Shown here in pieces: positions 49,606 through 58,658 of a stretch of 64,000 nt of DNA. The stretch lies in the UHGV virus genome UHGV-0171999; one strand, given 5' to 3'. Below the pieces are notes generated by a model. It was not told the origin of the DNA, made no database searches, and was given only the letters and a program-made list of their open reading frames with translations. The stretch's first letter is position 1; each line of letters starts with the position of its first letter. Made by a program: the position numbers and the translations under genes. This DNA is from a virus.

Positions 49606-49609
49606 GTTG

Positions 49610-49637
49610 AGGACTCCTTCGGGAGTCCTTTTTTTAT
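49610..49637 (+). terminator. rho-independent terminator
   Basis: AGGACTCCTTCGGGAGTCCT hairpin followed by TTTTTTTATTTT. Confidence 0.75.
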
Positions 49638-49659
49638 TTTCCAAAGATTGCACAAAGTT

Positions 49660-49689
49660 GTTTACAGTATGGTTCCTTTGTGATAGTAT
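49660..49689 (+). promoter_or_regulatory. T4-type early promoter
   Basis: GTTTAC 49660-49665, 18-bp spacer, TAGTAT. Confidence 0.55.
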
Positions 49690-49716
49690 TATCTTACACA
49701 AACAAAGGAGAATAAA

Positions 49717-50085
49717 ATGAAAATCAATCTTAACTCATACATCAAAGGTAAAGATCACGACGGCTATAAAGCTATCGAAACTAAAGAACTTCAGTGGCAC
49801 TTATACAAAGAACAATTTGAATTTGTAGGTTGCATGACTCCTGAAGGTCCTTCTGATGATTTCTCTTGGAAAATAATGTTAACTAACTTTTTTACTGGAG
49901 ATACATACGAATTAAAAACTTTGATTCTTGGTAAAATTCGCTGTGAGACTTATGAAGATAAAGAAACTGGTTACTCTGAAGATGTTACGTGGTATCAAAA
50001 TGGTCGTATTACCGCTGACCTCTTGATTGAAAAAATGAAAGCCAAAGGTGAATTAAATTTAGATAATTGGATTAAAGTTGCATAA
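49717..50085 (+). CDS. hypothetical protein, 122 aa
   Basis: ATG after AGGAGAATAAA; first gene of the rIII-to-ligase small-ORF block. Confidence 0.5.
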   Translation: MKINLNSYIKGKDHDGYKAIETKELQWHLYKEQFEFVGCMTPEGPSDDFSWKIMLTNFFTGDTYELKTLILGKIRCETYEDKETGYSEDVTWYQNGRITADLLIEKMKAKGELNLDNWIKVA

Positions 50086-50089
50086 AATA

Positions 50090-50119
50090 GTTTACTTTGG
50101 TACAGGATATGATATTATA
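50090..50119 (+). promoter_or_regulatory. T4-type early promoter
   Basis: GTTTAC 50090-50095, 18-bp spacer, TATTAT. Confidence 0.55.
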
Positions 50120-50155
50120 TACCTGTACCGCAATTAAACATCTCGGAGAATAAAA

Positions 50156-50521
50156 ATGAACTACATCAACTTTGAACGTAAATATGTTTCTAATGGTATT
50201 GCAGGTTCTATTGATACTATCTGCCTTTGGAAACATCAAAATGGATCAGTATGCGAAATTGAACAGTATATGACTCCTAACTACGTTTATATGCGATTTG
50301 AAAATGGCATCACGGTTTCAATCACAATGGAAGGTTCCAACTTCAAAATCGCTCTGGATGATGATTTTCGTCAACGTGATTTAGGGACTCATCCTTGCTG
50401 GAATGGCGTTAATCGCAAGCTTTTAGTTAAAACTTGGATTCGTCATATTCTGAGTAACAGAGCTAAACCTGAGCATCTTGAAGCGATCTTTGATGTAGTT
50501 CTTAATGAATTTGATATTTAA
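50156..50521 (+). CDS. hypothetical protein, 121 aa
   Basis: ATG after GGAGAATAAAA. Confidence 0.5.
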   Translation: MNYINFERKYVSNGIAGSIDTICLWKHQNGSVCEIEQYMTPNYVYMRFENGITVSITMEGSNFKIALDDDFRQRDLGTHPCWNGVNRKLLVKTWIRHILSNRAKPEHLEAIFDVVLNEFDI

Positions 50522-50562
50522 AATAAAATTAGGGGCTTCGGCCCCTTACTGAGGAAAATACT

Positions 50563-50850
50563 ATGTTTATGACTACTTATTTTGATACTCGTAAAAACTT
50601 CTGCGAAGTGGTTTTCTCTAAGGCGCCTAAAGACCTTCCTGCTCATTTGCAACCTACTAGCGAATCGATTAAAAACTACGTTAATGTAGTATGTCCTTTA
50701 GAGTTCCGTACTGTAAATGGGCGCGATACTTTAGCTATCACTAAACTCAATCGTGAAATTGACATTGATCCTTCAATTGCGCGTGAAATTAACATTTCTG
50801 ATATTGGCGGCGGTAATGTTAAATCGCACGGTTTTCAGATGAGGTTCTAA
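50563..50850 (+). CDS. hypothetical protein, 95 aa
   Basis: ATG after GAGGAAAATACT; preceded by GGGGCTTCGGCCCC hairpin at 50532-50545. Confidence 0.5.
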   Translation: MFMTTYFDTRKNFCEVVFSKAPKDLPAHLQPTSESIKNYVNVVCPLEFRTVNGRDTLAITKLNREIDIDPSIAREINISDIGGGNVKSHGFQMRF

Positions 50851-51047
50851 TGAAATTCTTTTTAGGTCAAACTGTTGAATTAAAGGGAGTTGGTATACCT
50901 GGATTAATTTCTAAGGTTCTACCTCCATTTAAATGGAGTGGTATTCAAATAAAAGAGGCTTATATTGTTTCCTGGGTAGATGGAAATGAAGACCTTCGTA
51001 TGGGTGATGAATTATCTCCTATTTACGGATTAAAGGAATTAGTATGA
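50850..51047 (+). CDS. hypothetical protein, 65 aa
   Basis: TAATG overlap with previous ORF. Confidence 0.45.
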   Translation: MKFFLGQTVELKGVGIPGLISKVLPPFKWSGIQIKEAYIVSWVDGNEDLRMGDELSPIYGLKELV

Positions 51048-51250
51048 ATATAATTAATAAGATTTTTGGAATTCAGTACATTAAGGTCACATATAAAGTA
51101 ACAGATAAAAATCCATATACTGATGAACATGAAGAACCGAAAGTTGAGTCTATTATATTAGAAAAGGACCCTAACTGGCCAGTTGAATTTCGTCTTCCTT
51201 GCTATGGTCATTGGGCTGATGTTGAAATTATAAGTATTGAAAATGTCTGA
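51044..51250 (+). CDS. hypothetical protein, 68 aa
   Basis: ATGA overlap. Confidence 0.45.
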   Translation: MNIINKIFGIQYIKVTYKVTDKNPYTDEHEEPKVESIILEKDPNWPVEFRLPCYGHWADVEIISIENV

Positions 51251-51701
51251 GCTAGAGATAAGAAGCAATTTTAAATGGCCATCATGTGCATTAAGTAATT
51301 TCGCCCAATGGCCTTTCGTTATGGATGGCATTCAATTTGGAGGTCTCGAAGGATTCCTTCAAGGATGTAAGGTGAAAAATGTTGAACAGCAAAGACGTAT
51401 ATTTGGGTTATCCGGGCTTGCCGCCCAACAAGCTGGACGAGCTTATGCTAGAGCTCAGGACCGTGGGACCCTCTTCTGGCTCGGAGTTCCGTTTTCAAGA
51501 TACTCCCCAGCATGGAAAGAATTATACACAAATGCATATTTTGAAGCAGCGTTCCAAAACAGGGGCTTTCGCGATGCATTACAAGCCTCGAAAGGAAAAG
51601 TTTTGAAGCACAGCATGGCTAGTGGTCTAACAAAAGATGATACAATACTAACCGAAGCTGAATTTATTGATGTGTTAAACCTATTAAGAGACTCTCTATG
51701 A
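51237..51701 (+). CDS. NADAR/YbiA-like (DUF1768) protein, 154 aa (T4 30.3 position)
   Basis: Motifs LSNF, PF.MDG..F...E.F.Q..K and AGRAYA resemble the NADAR/YbiA family. Confidence 0.6.
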   Translation: MKMSELEIRSNFKWPSCALSNFAQWPFVMDGIQFGGLEGFLQGCKVKNVEQQRRIFGLSGLAAQQAGRAYARAQDRGTLFWLGVPFSRYSPAWKELYTNAYFEAAFQNRGFRDALQASKGKVLKHSMASGLTKDDTILTEAEFIDVLNLLRDSL

Positions 51702-52537
51702 AGCCTACTATTTTAACTGATATTGATGGAGTATGTTTAAGCTGGCAATCAGGTCTTCCTTATTTTGCTCAGAAATATAATCTTCCGTTAGAACATATTT
51801 TAAAAATGATCCAAGATGAGAAATTTATTTCTCCAGGTAAACTATTTAAATGCGATGAAGAACTTGGTGTCAAGTTAATTGAAAAATACAATCGATCAGA
51901 TTTTATTCGTTACTTGTCTCCATATAAAGATGCCCTGTGTGTAATTAACAAACTAAAAGAAGATTATAATTTTGTAGCTGTTACAGCATTGGGTGATTCT
52001 ATTGACGCTCTGTTGAATCGTCAATTTAATTTGAATGCTCTTTTTCCTGGTGCCTTCTCAGAAGTAATGATGTGTGGTCATGATTCTTCAAAAGAAGAGT
52101 TGTTTAAAAAGGCAAAAGAGAAATATAACGTAATTTGTTATATTGACGATCTCGCTCACCACTGCGATCATGCGAGTGAAATATTAAATGTTCCTGTTTA
52201 TTGGATGGCTCGAGGAGAGCGTGACAATATTCCAAAAACCGCTCAGCGAGTTTATACATGGAATGATGTAGAAAATAAGCTTTTTTCACCAAAGGAAAAT
52301 AAAGAAAGTTTTGATAGTGAAAAAGCTATAAAAGATTTAATTGAGAAGATGATTAAAAATGATTCTTTTCGTTGGAACACTACCTGGAGAACTCCTGGAT
52401 TTAATCCTTATAATCATCTATATCATCCATATCAGACACATCCGTTTCAGACATGGAACTATATTAAACCTGGTGGAATAGAGTATTTGTATAATAGACC
52501 TACTTGTGGTGATAATATTTTCCAAGGAGCATTCTAA
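51698..52537 (+). CDS. HAD-superfamily phosphatase-like protein, 279 aa (T4 30.2 position)
   Basis: N-terminal DIDGV motif typical of HAD motif I; ATGA overlap with neighbours. Confidence 0.6.
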   Translation: MKPTILTDIDGVCLSWQSGLPYFAQKYNLPLEHILKMIQDEKFISPGKLFKCDEELGVKLIEKYNRSDFIRYLSPYKDALCVINKLKEDYNFVAVTALGDSIDALLNRQFNLNALFPGAFSEVMMCGHDSSKEELFKKAKEKYNVICYIDDLAHHCDHASEILNVPVYWMARGERDNIPKTAQRVYTWNDVENKLFSPKENKESFDSEKAIKDLIEKMIKNDSFRWNTTWRTPGFNPYNHLYHPYQTHPFQTWNYIKPGGIEYLYNRPTCGDNIFQGAF

Positions 52538-52806
52538 TGTTTGTCGTTCACACTATTTATGAAAATGAAGGTAATACTACACGTGATTACGGTCACGTAA
52601 ATCAATTTTTTAGATGCAATCCAGAATTCCGAGCTCAAAAAGACGAACGAATTTTTAAAAAATGTGTAGAGCAAGGTTTCATTTACGTCAAGCACTGGAT
52701 GCAAGGAAATAAAGTTAGAACTACATATCATAAGTCTTTGCCTGAGCTTAATGATGAATTGATTTATAATAGAGCTGTAAATCAAACTCTGAAGGATGAA
52801 CAATGA
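52537..52806 (+). CDS. hypothetical protein, 89 aa
   Basis: Overlapping ORF directly upstream of DNA ligase. Confidence 0.45.
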   Translation: MFVVHTIYENEGNTTRDYGHVNQFFRCNPEFRAQKDERIFKKCVEQGFIYVKHWMQGNKVRTTYHKSLPELNDELIYNRAVNQTLKDEQ

Positions 52807-54266
52807 TTCTTAAAATTCTGAATGAAATAGCATCTATTGGACCAACTAAGCAGAAGCAAGCAATTCTGGAAAAGAATAAAGATAATGAATTGCTTAAACG
52901 AGTGTATCGTCTGACTTATTCTCGCGGGTTACAGTATTATATCAAGAAATGGCCTAAACCTGGTATTGCTACCCAGAGTTTTGGAATGCTGACTATTACC
53001 GATATGCTTGACTTCATTGAATTCACGTTAGCTACTCGGAAATTAACTGGCAATGCAGCAATTGAGGAATTGACTGGATATATCACCGATGGTAAAAAGG
53101 ATGATGTTGAAGTTTTGCGTCGAGTGATGATGCGAGACCTTGAATGCGGTGCTTCAGTATCTATTGCAAACAAAGTTTGGCCAGGTTTAATTCCTGAACA
53201 ACCTCAAATGCTGGCAAGTTCTTATGATGAAAAAGGCATTAATAAGAATATCAAGTTTCCAGCCTTTGCGCAGTTAAAAGCAGATGGAGCTCGTTGTTTT
53301 GCTGAAGTTCGAGGTGATGAATTAGATGATGTTCGTCTTTTATCACGAGCTGGCAATGAATATCTAGGATTAGATCTTCTTAAGGAAGAATTAATCAAAA
53401 TGACTGCTGAAGCCCGCCAGATTCATCCAGAAGGTGTGTTAATTGATGGCGAATTGGTATACCATGAGCAAGTTAAAAAGGAACCAGAAGGCCTAGATTT
53501 TCTTTTTGATGCTTATCCTGAAATTAGTAAAGCCAAAGAATTCGCCGAAGTAGCGGAATCTCGTACTACTTCTAATGGAATTGCCAATAAATCTTTAAAG
53601 GGAACTATTTCAGAAAAAGAAGCTCAATGCATGAAGTTTCAGGTCTGGGATTATGTCCCGTTAGTAGAAATATACGGTCTTCCGACGTTTCGTTTAAAAT
53701 ATGATGTACGTTTTTCTAAACTAGAACAAATGACATCAGGATATGATAAAGTAATTTTAATTGAAAACCAGGTAGTAAATAACCTAGATGAAGCTAAGGT
53801 AATTTATAAAAAGTATATTGACCAAGGTCTTGAAGGTATTATTCTCAAAAATACCGATGGATTATGGGAAAATGCTCGTTCAAAAAATCTTTATAAATTT
53901 AAAGAAGTAATTGATGTTGATTTAAAAATTGTAGGAATTTATCCTCACCGTAAAGACCCTACTAAAGCAGGTGGATTTATTCTTGAATCAGAGTGTGGAA
54001 AAATTAAAGTAAATGCCGGTTCAGGTTTAAAAGATAAAGCTGGTGTAAAATCACATGAACTTGACCGTACTCGCATTATGGAAAACCAAAATTATTATAT
54101 TGGAAAAATTCTAGAGTGCGAATGCAATGGTTGGTTAAAATCTGATGGCCGCACTGATTACGTTAAATTATTTCTTCCAATTGCGATTCGTTTACGTGAA
54201 GATAAAACTAAAGCTAATACATTCGAGGATGTATTTGGTGATTTTCATGAGGTAACTGGTCTATGA
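52803..54266 (+). CDS. 30: ATP-dependent DNA ligase, 487 aa
   Basis: Adenylation motif KADGAR; length matches T4 gp30. Confidence 0.95.
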   Translation: MILKILNEIASIGPTKQKQAILEKNKDNELLKRVYRLTYSRGLQYYIKKWPKPGIATQSFGMLTITDMLDFIEFTLATRKLTGNAAIEELTGYITDGKKDDVEVLRRVMMRDLECGASVSIANKVWPGLIPEQPQMLASSYDEKGINKNIKFPAFAQLKADGARCFAEVRGDELDDVRLLSRAGNEYLGLDLLKEELIKMTAEARQIHPEGVLIDGELVYHEQVKKEPEGLDFLFDAYPEISKAKEFAEVAESRTTSNGIANKSLKGTISEKEAQCMKFQVWDYVPLVEIYGLPTFRLKYDVRFSKLEQMTSGYDKVILIENQVVNNLDEAKVIYKKYIDQGLEGIILKNTDGLWENARSKNLYKFKEVIDVDLKIVGIYPHRKDPTKAGGFILESECGKIKVNAGSGLKDKAGVKSHELDRTRIMENQNYYIGKILECECNGWLKSDGRTDYVKLFLPIAIRLREDKTKANTFEDVFGDFHEVTGL

Positions 54267-56600: not shown

Positions 56601-58658
56601 ATGGAACTTATTACAGAATTATTTGACGGCGCTTCGGCGCCGGTTGTTAACTTAAATCCGAAGCATAAAATACCTCAAATTTTTGCTATTCAAGCAGGCG
56701 AAGAAAGTGTGCTTCCTGGATTTAGATTTTGTACATACACCTCCGGTGGTGATACAAATAAAAACGTTAAACCAGGCGATAAAATGATGCATATCGTAAT
56801 GATAGGTGTCAACGAAAAATTATCATTAGTCAAACTTAAAAACTTGGGTGGAAATCCAATTGGTGTCATTAATGCGGTTTTTGATACTGCTCTTCAAACA
56901 ATGAAACAGTATAAAATTGACGCATGCCTATTCCGCGTACTAAAAAGTAAAACAAATGGCGCAGCTCGTCAAATGCAAGTTATTGCTGACCGTTTAGTAC
57001 GTACTAAAGGAGCAGGTCGATATGTTCTTTTAAAGGAAATCTGGGACTATGATAAAAAGTATGCATATATTATGGTTTACCGTAAAAATGCTAATTTAGA
57101 AGACATTCCAGGTGTACCTCCTATTTCAACAGAGCTATTCACAAAAGTTGAATCAAAGGTCGGTGATGTTTATGTAGACGTTAAAACAGGTAATGCTGTT
57201 CCTAAAGCTGTCGCAGTTGCTGCTTCTATTGCTTTGGAAAATGATAAACGTACTGATCAAGCGGTTATTCAGAAAACTAAAATCAGTCGTCGATTAGCAG
57301 CACAAGCTCAATATTCTACTGTCGATGCTTCGCTCCAGGGTGATAGCTTCGCTGCCAAGAAATATCAAGAGTTTGAATCTAAAGTTCCGGTATATAAAGC
57401 AGAAGGACCAATGAACTCTGGTGTTATTCAGATTGGTTCCAACTTCAGCAAAGGAGCTATCGGTGGTATGAGAAGTGCTTCTCGTTTTAAATCTAACGAT
57501 TATGAACTAGAAAGCTTCCGAAATCATATTGCATTGGCCCATGCGCGTTTACGTGACCCATCTATCAAGCTGCAGAGCGATATAACATATCAAGGTTCTC
57601 AAGAATATTTAAAGAATAAAGAATTCTTTGATTATAAAACTGATAAAATTTTAAGCGATCTTGCTGACATTAATATTTCTAATAGCTTTGATGTTATTAA
57701 GAAAATTGTCAATGATTTAGTTAAAGGTTCTAAAGCCACGCCAGATGAAAAGGTAGCTATTGTTCAATTTGTCATGAATGGCATTTATAAATTGATTAAT
57801 GAGTCTGCTTCTCAAGCGTATGAATATGCAAGTACTGAAGTACCCCCAAAAGGATTAACTCAGGCTGAGTCCGATGTAATTGAAGATTATTGTGCAGATT
57901 CATATGTTGAAATGAACTCGTTCCTTTTGGGTAAACCAGATTCTACCCGTGAAGAATACATGGAACGAGCTATTAAACACATCGAGACAATGGATTCTGC
58001 CTTTGCCAAAGGATCAGTTCTTCCTCCAGGAACTACACTTTACCGTGGGCAAGAAGTTACCTTTAAAACTTTACGTCATAATATTGAAAATAAAATGTTC
58101 TATTTCAAGAACTTCGTATCCACATCGCTTAAACCAAATATCTTCGGTGAGTATGGTAAAAACTATATGGCTCTAGATGATTCCGGAACAGTATTTTCTG
58201 GTGAAGGAGAAGGTTCAGTTGATGCTGAAGATTTAATGCATATGGGTAGTCATTCTGCATATGCTAATGAAGATGCTGAAACTAGCGTAGGTATGGTAAT
58301 AAAAGGAGCTGAGCGAATTAAAGTTATCGTTCCAGGTCATTTATCAGGATTTCCATCAGAAGCTGAAGTTATTTTACCACGTGGAATTTTGCTGAAGATT
58401 AATAAAGTGAGCACGTATATGATGAAAGAAACTGCTTATAACAAGTATTTAATCGAAGGCACAATCGTTCCTCCTTCTGAACAATTAGAAGAATCGGTAT
58501 ATGATGGTGATCATCTAATGGAAACTGGTGAAGTTCGTCCAATGGCTGGATTTAATCAATTCCTTGTAGAAGAATCAAAAGAAGAGGAAAACGAAGTTTC
58601 TCAAATCTTGGCTTCTTTGGTTAACATCAACGGAATGTCTAAAAAGTTCAAGATGTAG
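56601..58658 (+). CDS. alt: Alt ADP-ribosyltransferase (virion-packaged), 685 aa
   Basis: Alt-family N-terminus MELITELFD; ART motifs LYRGQ, FVSTSL, EAEVILPRG; adjacent to gene 54 as in T4. Confidence 0.8.
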   Translation: MELITELFDGASAPVVNLNPKHKIPQIFAIQAGEESVLPGFRFCTYTSGGDTNKNVKPGDKMMHIVMIGVNEKLSLVKLKNLGGNPIGVINAVFDTALQTMKQYKIDACLFRVLKSKTNGAARQMQVIADRLVRTKGAGRYVLLKEIWDYDKKYAYIMVYRKNANLEDIPGVPPISTELFTKVESKVGDVYVDVKTGNAVPKAVAVAASIALENDKRTDQAVIQKTKISRRLAAQAQYSTVDASLQGDSFAAKKYQEFESKVPVYKAEGPMNSGVIQIGSNFSKGAIGGMRSASRFKSNDYELESFRNHIALAHARLRDPSIKLQSDITYQGSQEYLKNKEFFDYKTDKILSDLADINISNSFDVIKKIVNDLVKGSKATPDEKVAIVQFVMNGIYKLINESASQAYEYASTEVPPKGLTQAESDVIEDYCADSYVEMNSFLLGKPDSTREEYMERAIKHIETMDSAFAKGSVLPPGTTLYRGQEVTFKTLRHNIENKMFYFKNFVSTSLKPNIFGEYGKNYMALDDSGTVFSGEGEGSVDAEDLMHMGSHSAYANEDAETSVGMVIKGAERIKVIVPGHLSGFPSEAEVILPRGILLKINKVSTYMMKETAYNKYLIEGTIVPPSEQLEESVYDGDHLMETGEVRPMAGFNQFLVEESKEEENEVSQILASLVNINGMSKKFKM

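Follow-up and report, generated by a model that had tools for sequence, protein, structure and literature searches.

A T4-like phage carries an orthologue of the anti-DarTG1 enzyme AdfN in a putative operon with a predicted NT5C-like phosphatase

Introduction

Gene 30.3 of bacteriophage T4 encodes AdfN, a NADAR DNA ADP-ribosylglycohydrolase that counters the host system DarTG1 (Johannesman et al., Nat Commun 2025, PMC11825919). Deletion of adfN makes T4 and T2 sensitive to DarTG1, ectopic adfN rescues RB69, the E36A and K43A substitutions impair the T4 protein and purified AdfN by itself strips ADP-ribose from DNA (PMC11825919). In vitro, AdfN hydrolyses G-ADPr and not T-ADPr. The gene is dispensable without DarTG1 and necessary for growth on DarTG1 hosts, and in a Tn-seq analysis of T4 on DarTG1 insertions in 30.3 dropped 150-fold (log2FC -7.25; HIDEN-SEQ preprint). 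In uninfected E. coli, however, T4 AdfN is unable to neutralise DarT1, and it rescues non-T-even phages only weakly, which argues that a further T-even factor is needed for its full activity and that the mechanism as described is incomplete.

NADAR proteins share a catalytic Glu and Lys on an E-x-F-x-Q-x-x-K helix (E43 in PnNADAR; E36 and K43 in T4). The catalytic position at the last strand varies by clade, being Glu in YbiA, Asp in DarG1/BC4488 and His in phage NADARs, and DarG1 represents the clade closest to the phage family.

In T4, adfN is followed by gene 30.2, for which a literature search with 'gp30.2' retrieved no paper. Gene 30.2 is non-essential on K-12, and neither there nor on DarTG1 nor in the comparison of LB with M9 does its product show a phenotype. 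Here we analyse a related locus in a window of viral DNA (the whole stretch of 64,000 nucleotides). A sequence-only reading of this window had singled out a 154-aa open reading frame as a NADAR/YbiA-like protein, overlapping a 279-aa HAD-like phosphatase, and had proposed that the two act together to remove a nucleotide-derived modification.

Results

At 95-97% identity to many Tequatrovirus genomes, the window belongs to the T4-like phages. Its gene order in the block under study, 30.4-30.3-30.2-30.1-30, is that of T4, with gene 30 encoding the DNA ligase, and the two genes singled out correspond to 30.3 and 30.2. All five lie on the plus strand. Gene 30.4 (51044..51250; 68 aa, phrog_2042) overlaps the ATG of adfN (51243..51701) by 8 nt (ATGTCTGA). 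The adfN stop in turn lies on the start of gene 30.2 (51698..52537) in a 4-nt ATGA (51698..51701), read directly from the sequence, in which the ATG of gp30.2 occupies 51698-51700 and the TGA of gp30.3 occupies 51699-51701. Gene 30.2 overlaps gene 30.1 (52537..52806; DUF3045, PF11243 at 5.6e-63) by 1 nt in TAATG, and, to judge by the ORF coordinates, 30.1 shares 4 nt with gene 30, the ATP-dependent DNA ligase gene (52803..54266; product 99% identical to T4 ligase by tblastn). Since every junction from 30.4 to 30 is an overlap, we read these genes as a single translationally coupled operon. The ATGA overlap between the 154-aa and 279-aa frames had been pointed out before, and we find it at the identical position in 12/12 related loci, despite differing flanking bases. 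The frames of the block had also been described as promoter-driven. This finds no support, as a scan for sigma-70-like promoters returned 19 sites, at chance level and without enrichment (20.9 +/- 4.1 expected). An internal frame annotated in T4 as 30.3' (51379-51606) is probably not a gene, its start codon being lost or a stop falling inside it in relatives. Further downstream in the window, at 2.8-6.9 kb, are two genes for Alt-like ADP-ribosyltransferases.

Gene 30.3 almost certainly starts at the ATG at 51243, giving 152 aa, rather than at the TTG at 51237 of the ORF list (154 aa), because T4 annotates 30.3 as 459 nt and because the published E36/K43 numbering fits the ATG start only. The product is identical to T4 gp30.3 at 147/152 positions (97%, BLASTP). 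None of the five substitutions relative to T4 (K11R, A67S, F104I, R107K and M125I) affects a catalytic residue. The protein is full length with an intact C-terminal helix; loss of that helix is what inactivates the RB69 allele. The apparent end at residue 144 in many tblastn matches is an artefact seen with T4 as well, since BLASTP and translation give 152 aa. Most database records still name gp30.3 'hypothetical protein'.

The signature on which the NADAR call had been based (LSNF, DG..F...E.F.Q..K and GR in the frame 51237-51701) is present in full: in 152-aa numbering it comprises A-L-S-N-F at aa 16-20, D28-G29..F32...E36.F38.Q40..K43 and G65-R66. Profile searches gave a divided answer. gp30.3 matches PF08010 (Phage_30_3) at 5.9e-69, and 14/35 members of its family match the NADAR profile PF08719 (best 1.5e-7), but gp30.3 itself has no direct match to PF08719 at E <= 0.1. 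Likewise, gp30.2 itself matches no Pfam or NCBIfam profile for HAD or NT5C, and single-sequence searches of the PDB with either protein were non-significant (E about 1). As direct Pfam matches are absent, the NADAR and HAD assignments have to be built on family profiles, transitive matches and structure. For gp30.3, a family profile searched against the PDB finds YbiA (2b3w, E = 0.0013) as its sole significant match, with the Glu and Lys aligned. An AF2 model, for which the alignment was built without the T4 sequence, shows the NADAR alpha+beta fold, in which small beta-hairpins surround a helical core (pLDDT 94.6, pTM 0.89). In Foldseek searches of the PDB its top three matches, 2b3w (6e-5), 8bau and 8bat, are all NADAR structures, and the rest have E > 3. 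The NADAR/YbiA assignment therefore stands on PF08010, the transitive PF08719 matches and these three structures.

In 35 homologues of gp30.3 none of E36, K43 and H123 varies, so that the catalytic residues hold in an alignment. The codons of Glu36 (GAA, 51348..51350) and Lys43 (AAG, 51369..51371) specify residues that align with 'SEHYFQAQK' of YbiA, and His123 (51609..51611) adjoins the last beta-strand of the model (residues 120-122). gp30.3, a minimal protein of the NADAR fold, is a member of the phage NADAR (AdfN) subfamily, which H123 marks. Its mode of action would be that of T4 AdfN. The host toxin DarT1 would ADP-ribosylate guanine in phage DNA and block replication, and AdfN would hydrolyse the ADP-ribose-guanine linkage through Glu36 and Lys43, with His123 in place of the family's third catalytic acid. 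Release of the ADP-ribose would restore unmodified DNA and permit growth on DarTG1 hosts. The anti-DarTG1 activity was demonstrated with the T4 protein, which is 97% identical, and from this similarity we infer it for the copy in the window.

Gene 30.2 encodes 279 aa. By sequence and model, aa 1-~196 form a HAD phosphatase core that bears a C1 helical cap, and the remainder is a disordered tail. The protein is 97% identical to T4 gp30.2 and matches phrog_420 at 2e-92. The DIDGV motif noticed from the sequence lies at residues 8-12 and contributes HAD motif I, D8-I-D10 (51719..51727), with the predicted nucleophile and general acid/base Asp, both invariant in two alignments (A1 and A4). Motif II is Thr96 (51983..51985; conserved in >= 90% of sequences, Ser in two), motif III the invariant Lys132 (52091..52093), and motif IV D150-D151 (52145..52150), the putative Mg2+ ligands, of which D151 is invariant in A4 and both are conserved in >= 90% of A1. 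D8, D10, K132 and D151 are invariant even in relatives at 22-38% identity. A second Asp two residues past the nucleophile separates HAD phosphatases from dehalogenases, and D10 matches it. The model has pLDDT >90 over aa 1-195, a Rossmannoid core and cap helices at residues 16-72. Foldseek returned 105 PDB matches at E <= 1e-3; all 50 listed belong to the HAD superfamily, and among the matches listed the best TM and rmsd are those of cdN, mdN and 3bwv. The four conserved motifs and the fold of the model thus indicate that gp30.2 is a genuine HAD phosphatase, and the HAD call is borne out at the level of fold and motif.

Relatives of gp30.2 extend this picture. PF00702 is matched by 8/32 and 7/44 proteins in two relative sets, PF13419 is matched too, and PF06941 (NT5C) is matched by 4/32 close and 14/44 distant relatives (best 6e-10). 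The family profile finds 3bwv at 3.3e-5 and 2jao at 0.017, as well as pyrimidine and XMP nucleotidases. W16, conserved in >= 90%, aligns with a Phe of cdN eight residues past the nucleophile. By fold and profile neighbours, the nearest relatives are NT5C-type 5'(3')-deoxyribonucleotidases. gp30.2 would accordingly be classed as an Mg2+-dependent HAD phosphomonoesterase of the NT5C clade with a closed C1 helical cap, and its substrate, to guess from the fold neighbours, is most likely a (deoxy)nucleoside monophosphate or another small phosphoester of that kind. We know of no need for a dNMP phosphatase in T4-like phages. A nutritional phenotype, considered for a putative nucleotidase, is discounted by the neutrality of 30.2 in LB versus M9 and its non-essentiality on K-12.

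The tail of gp30.2 (~80 residues) is disordered and hypervariable, with pLDDT <50 over aa 239-279. It contains a short conserved motif, G-G-I-E-Y-L-Y-N-R-P-T (52472..52504, plus strand), which recurs as 'G[IVL]EY[LW]..[QR]PT' in 19/100 homologue clusters, where it follows linkers that cannot be aligned; in other clades the tail is different or absent. The stretch I-E-Y-L-Y may resemble the T4 sliding-clamp-binding motif, L-D-F-L-F/L, which is C-terminal, although the tail motif stops short of the very end of gp30.2. Conceivably, gp30.2 is a counter-defence nucleotidase in its own right, with a hypervariable tail that follows a partner in the host.

Discussion

We consider it very likely that the first gene of the pair is the AdfN orthologue that counters DarTG1, and that gp30.2 is a separate, NT5C-like phosphatase which shares its operon and not its pathway. 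The cooperation that had been proposed would consist of two steps, with AdfN freeing ADP-ribose or a derivative and gp30.2 dephosphorylating the product or the DNA, both being needed against an ADP-ribosylating defence. The genes do travel together to some extent. Their ATGA coupling is kept throughout the close relatives, a NADAR gene within 10 kb of gp30.2 (35/72 loci) is always upstream, on the same strand and <= 1.5 kb away, the two are each present in about 1,500 phage records and their counts per host genus are nearly the same, and AdfN depends on a further T-even factor. Against this, a NADAR gene directly adjoins gp30.2 in only 18/72 loci (25%), about 59/80 NADAR loci lack a gp30.2 gene in the 10 kb to either side, and in at least 7 Straboviridae genomes adfN and 30.2 are about 55 kb apart. 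NADAR chemistry yields intact DNA and free ADP-ribose, with no phosphoester left to remove, and AdfN de-ADP-ribosylates DNA when purified alone. The weightiest evidence comes from Tn-seq of T4 on DarTG1, in which 30.2, with 71 insertion sites, is neutral (log2FC -0.12, p = 0.61) under the selection that so strongly depletes 30.3. This neutrality largely refutes the two-step pathway, which we regard as highly improbable, and the claim that the two proteins together remove a nucleotide-derived modification is unsupported in view of the same result, the independent action of AdfN and the separated genes. On the 30.2 row of HIDEN-SEQ Data S6 we also reject gp30.2 as the T-even factor of AdfN. The conserved coupling leaves room for a stoichiometric, non-essential relationship, which pooled Tn-seq might miss.

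The gene to which gp30.2 is most consistently linked is the ligase. In 62/72 gp30.2 loci (86%) a ligase gene of the same strand begins no more than 700 nt downstream, and in 70/72 it lies within 10 kb, with homologues down to about 40% identity. gp30.2 could in this light be a DNA-end 3'-phosphatase that, like the HAD domain of T4 polynucleotide kinase, heals nicks for the downstream ligase; a weak match to phrog_415 'polynucleotide kinase' (E = 0.002) and PNK-phosphatase-like phage proteins among its viral fold matches point the same way. Adjacency alone is weak evidence, however, in genomes as strongly syntenic as those of T4-like phages, and both the profile and the best structural neighbours of gp30.2 are nucleotidases, not Pnkp. 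Moreover, in the model roughly 60 residues between motifs I and II form a helical C1 cap. In the HAD classification reported by Burroughs et al. in 2006, a cap goes with small-molecule substrates, and members with no cap (C0), such as Pnkp, act on macromolecules. A role in end healing is therefore unlikely, and a small-molecule NT5C-like phosphatase is the reading that we prefer for gp30.2.

For AdfN itself, DarTG1 could be one target among several, the main substrates being soluble signals derived from ADP-ribose, G-ADPr on RNA or lesions left by further guanine ADP-ribosyltransferases. NADARs do remove RNA G-ADPr as well, AdfN is poorly active outside T-even infection, and the Alt-like genes lie close by. 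Alt-type enzymes, though, act on arginine in proteins, a residue that is not known as a NADAR substrate. The genetics, with adfN necessary on DarTG1 and dispensable otherwise, and the direct de-ADP-ribosylation of DNA by T4 AdfN likewise speak against other main substrates, which we hold to be quite unlikely; the idea is tenable only as an additional role next to the anti-DarTG1 function.

A candidate for the T-even factor on which AdfN depends is gp30.4 rather than the HAD protein. Besides 30.3, gene 30.4 is the only DarTG1-sensitive gene of the block in T4, its insertions being depleted on DarTG1 (log2FC -1.79, padj 0.014; HIDEN-SEQ preprint). This depletion, the 8-nt overlap with adfN and the restriction of 30.4 to close T-even relatives, in which it always abuts adfN, together suggest a potentiating function, even if we rate it as rather improbable. 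Insertions just upstream of the essential ligase gene are tolerated, and this makes it less likely that polarity is strong in general. We nevertheless deem it likelier that insertions in 30.4 may simply lower the coupled translation of adfN, since no Shine-Dalgarno sequence of its own is evident for adfN.

The NADAR reading and the anti-DarTG1 role are already known from work published in 2024-2025. The proposal that the NADAR protein counters a host ADP-ribosylating defence is met by its T4 orthologue (PMC11825919; HIDEN-SEQ preprint), and the hydrolysis and knockout experiments suggested for DarTG-type hosts are already in print for T4 AdfN (PMC11825919). adfN is a textbook-ready case of a lytic phage with an orphan antitoxin-like enzyme, on which an independent Tn-seq screen agrees, and its recovery in a relative of T4 adds annotation only. 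What the present analysis adds is a clear negative for the overlapping HAD gene as a partner of AdfN, gp30.4 as a concrete candidate for the T-even factor, and a predicted family-level class for gp30.2, that of an NT5C-like nucleotide phosphatase tied to the ligase locus and with swappable C-terminal tails.

The copy in the window agrees with T4 AdfN in length, in E36, K43 and H123, in its C-terminal helix and in its neighbours and overlaps, and is its orthologue; it differs in five non-catalytic substitutions, and its activity is deduced from that of T4. DarG1, the NADAR antitoxin of DarTG1 (Schuller et al., Mol Cell 2023, PMC11543638; PDB 8bat), has the same fold and guanine-ADPr hydrolase chemistry. 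In contrast to DarG1, AdfN is without the N-terminal extension, carries His in place of the catalytic Asp and is an orphan with no adjacent DarT, and it cannot replace DarG1 in uninfected cells. E. coli YbiA (2b3w), the founding member of NADAR/DUF1768, is the best structural match to AdfN (E = 6e-5, TM 0.67), and its FSNF and E..FQ..K motifs align with those of AdfN, whereas its last-strand position is Glu, its function is the housekeeping cleavage of riboflavin intermediates and its identity to AdfN is ~18%. With the NT5C enzymes cdN and mdN (PF06941) and with 3bwv of S. epidermidis, gp30.2 shares the HAD core, a small helical cap, DxDGV, the aromatic residue eight positions past the nucleophile and transitive Pfam matches; it falls below the PF06941 threshold, however, is about 16-20% identical to them and has the additional ~80-residue disordered tail. 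The NT5C family also includes Dtm of phage PBS1 (Adv Sci 2025, PMC12697855), which dephosphorylates a mononucleotide, dTMP, to shape the dNTP pool. Dtm serves the synthesis of dU-DNA, whereas T4-like phages make hmC DNA, and as an NT5C-like HAD protein of a phage it provides the best functional analogy for gp30.2.

Gene order and start sites in the 30.4-30 region

The window is a T4-like (Tequatrovirus) genome. Several hundred records of Escherichia and Shigella phages match region 49700-52810 at 95-97% identity, and the gene order on the + strand is that of T4: 31, rIII, 30.9 through 30.4, 30.3, 30.2, 30.1 and 30 (DNA ligase). The 154- and 279-aa ORFs flagged in the sequence-only reading are genes 30.3 and 30.2, each 97% identical to the T4 protein, and every motif quoted for them is present. 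The 154-aa ORF exists, but its start at TTG 51237 is not favoured: the true start is almost certainly ATG 51243 (152 aa), because the T4 protein has 152 aa and the published residue numbering requires the ATG. The ATGA overlap of 30.3 and 30.2 is real (51698-51701). Successive genes along 30.4-30.3-30.2-30.1-30 share 8, 4, 1 and 4 nt, and the five form a single tightly coupled operon; the overlap of 30.1 with 30 is inferred from ORF coordinates, whereas the other three were read from the sequence. The description of the surrounding ORFs as promoter-driven did not hold up, with 19 promoter-like sites observed and 20.9 ± 4.1 expected.

Just 5' of gene 30.8, at 49609-49689 (+), lies a strong hairpin that resembles a terminator (GAGGACTCC-TTCG-GGAGTCCTT with a T-run), followed after about 30 nt by a promoter-like TTTACA-17-TAGTAT with an extended -10 TG; together they probably mark the start of a transcription unit. 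The ORF annotated in T4 as 30.3' (75 aa, 51379-51606, +), inside gene 30.3 in another frame, is intact in the window. It is unlikely to be a true gene, given that in relatives it has lost its start codon or gained an internal stop beside an intact 30.3.

gp30.3 is a NADAR protein with a published anti-DarT role

The Pfam NADAR family (PF08719) does not match gp30.3 of the window directly; PF08010 ("Phage_30_3") does, at 5.9e-69, and PF08719 matches 14 of 35 diverse family members (best 1.5e-7). The sole PDB match of the family profile is E. coli YbiA (2b3w, E = 0.0013), in which LSNF aligns with FSNF and E..F.Q..K with E..FQ..K. An AlphaFold2 model built from 35 homologues (pLDDT 94.6) has as its only credible PDB neighbours the three solved NADARs: YbiA, a Phytophthora NADAR with ADP-ribose bound and a Geobacter NADAR of the DarG1 type. 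E36, K43 and H123 are invariant in homologues down to 35% identity, and in the literature the phage NADAR subfamily is marked by a His at the last-strand position. The family call stands.

The proposed role against ADP-ribosylation is likewise right, and already known. Johannesman et al. (Nat Commun 2025, PMC11825919) gave T4 30.3 the new name "anti-DarT factor NADAR" (adfN). In their work, T4 and T2 that lack adfN no longer plaque on hosts with the DarTG1 toxin-antitoxin defence, and RB69, in which a frameshift alters adfN 15 residues from its end, is rescued by expressed adfN. E36A and K43A impair the protein, and purified AdfN strips ADP-ribose off DNA that DarT1 has modified. Earlier in vitro work had shown that T4 gp30.3 cleaves guanosine-ADPr, not thymidine-ADPr. 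HIDEN-SEQ, a transposon screen in T4 carried out independently and described in a preprint, saw 30.3 insertions lost on DarTG1 (Data S6; log2 fold change -7.25, a drop of about 150-fold). The window allele is full length with the same C-terminus as that of T4, and should therefore be active.

In many of the close gp30.3 clusters (e.g., P0104-P0107, P0113-P0118, P0145) the protein is shortened, to 86-126 aa, or joined to an adjacent ORF, with PF06919, PF06019 or PF11097 present as well. This suggests that adfN, as in RB69, has undergone frameshift or recombination in quite a few T4-like phages. Phages with a broken adfN are predicted to be sensitive to DarTG1.

gp30.2 is a HAD phosphatase, probably nucleotidase-like

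Pfam and NCBIfam scans gave no direct match for gp30.2, and the profile evidence comes from relatives: Pfam NT5C matches 14 of 44 distant ones (best 6e-10). The protein falls in phrog_420, with homologues in about 1,450 phage records and 1,514 clusters of a large protein library (50% identity, E <= 1e-3). The HAD reading is borne out by the four motifs kept in the family (D8xD10, T96, K132, D150-D151) and by the model, which is confident over residues 1-195 and shows a Rossmannoid core that is interrupted after motif I by a cap made of helices (residues 16-72). It has 105 PDB matches at E <= 1e-3; all 50 listed belong to the HAD superfamily, and among these the best TM-scores and rmsd are those of the 5'(3')-deoxyribonucleotidases cdN and mdN and of the deoxyribonucleotidase-like 3bwv. 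The family profile finds 3bwv at 3.3e-5, followed by pyrimidine and XMP nucleotidases; W16 aligns with the Phe after motif I of cdN, and the neighbours of gp30.2 beyond its own family in a viral structure library are mostly labelled 5' nucleotidase. Under the accepted classification of HAD enzymes, a protein that combines a C1 cap with an Asp at nucleophile+2 would be expected to dephosphorylate small molecules.

While the HAD core is conserved, the last approximately 80 residues (197-279; 52286-52534, +) are predicted to be disordered and are hypervariable. The window phage belongs to a class ending in the conserved motif G-I-E-Y-L-x-x-x-P-T ("GTGIEYLxxQPT", 19 of 100 clusters). Other classes end in "...LRAYY", "...PDYVLLNKVTANDSD" or "...CSPGGTALLGMASLPIITG", and some clades have unrelated tails or none (forms of about 200 aa). 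The tails look like swappable interaction modules.

A partnership of AdfN and gp30.2 is not supported

The suggestion that the NADAR and HAD proteins act jointly is not supported. In the screen in which 30.3 insertions were lost, 30.2 was neutral on DarTG1 (71 insertion sites, log2 -0.12, p = 0.61; HIDEN-SEQ Data S6). T4 Tn-seq shows 30.2 to be non-essential on K-12 (72/72 sites hit) and neutral in LB versus M9. Moreover, AdfN needs no partner in vitro (PMC11825919). The reaction that it catalyses yields no phosphoester for a phosphatase to act on. The ATGA junction is kept in 12/12 close relatives. The constant neighbour of gp30.2 is the ligase, not the NADAR. Among 72 loci with adequate flanks, the ligase lies within 10 kb in 70 and starts less than 700 nt downstream in 62; NADAR lies within 10 kb in just 35 and abuts in just 18. 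About 59 of 80 NADAR loci lack gp30.2 within 10 kb, and in at least seven genomes the two are about 55 kb apart. Since the loci are not phylogenetically independent, these counts describe a pattern and are no test. That gp30.2 is a DNA-end phosphatase aiding the ligase we regard as quite unlikely, as both its helical cap and its nucleotidase affinities speak against it.

T4 AdfN leaves uninfected E. coli open to DarT1 and rescues phages other than T-evens only weakly, for which reason the authors postulated an additional T-even factor. The obvious candidate, gp30.2, is excluded as a required partner by the Tn-seq data. Upstream, gene 30.4 (51044-51250, +; 68 aa, no known family), whose stop overlaps the adfN ATG by 8 nt, was the sole other gene of the block to lose insertions significantly on DarTG1 (log2FC -1.79, padj 0.014; HIDEN-SEQ Data S6). 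Only the close T-even clade has this gene, which abuts adfN every time, and its C-terminus is conserved (RLPxYGHWADVEIIS). As no Shine-Dalgarno sequence is evident for adfN itself, the loss of coupled translation, i.e. a polar effect on adfN, is the simpler explanation for this depletion. Against it stand the argument of the HIDEN-SEQ authors that polar effects are not widespread, and the insertions tolerated in 30.1 (T4 Tn-seq), directly 5' of the essential ligase in the same operon. That gp30.4 itself potentiates AdfN seems unlikely, and is nevertheless a lead.

Comparison with known systems

The window has, a short way downstream of the ligase and alt.1, two tandem Alt-like ADP-ribosyltransferase genes (PF03496; 54501-56597, 698 aa, and 56601-58658, 685 aa; both +), whose products are 40% identical. 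The inspected stretch of the T4 record has a single alt at this position, and of the two copies in the window the first looks like an additional paralogue that has diverged. The residual value of our analysis lies in the gp30.4 lead, in the negative result on gp30.2 as a partner of AdfN and in the classification of gp30.2, whose closest characterised phage analogue is Dtm of PBS1, a dTMP phosphatase of the NT5C family.
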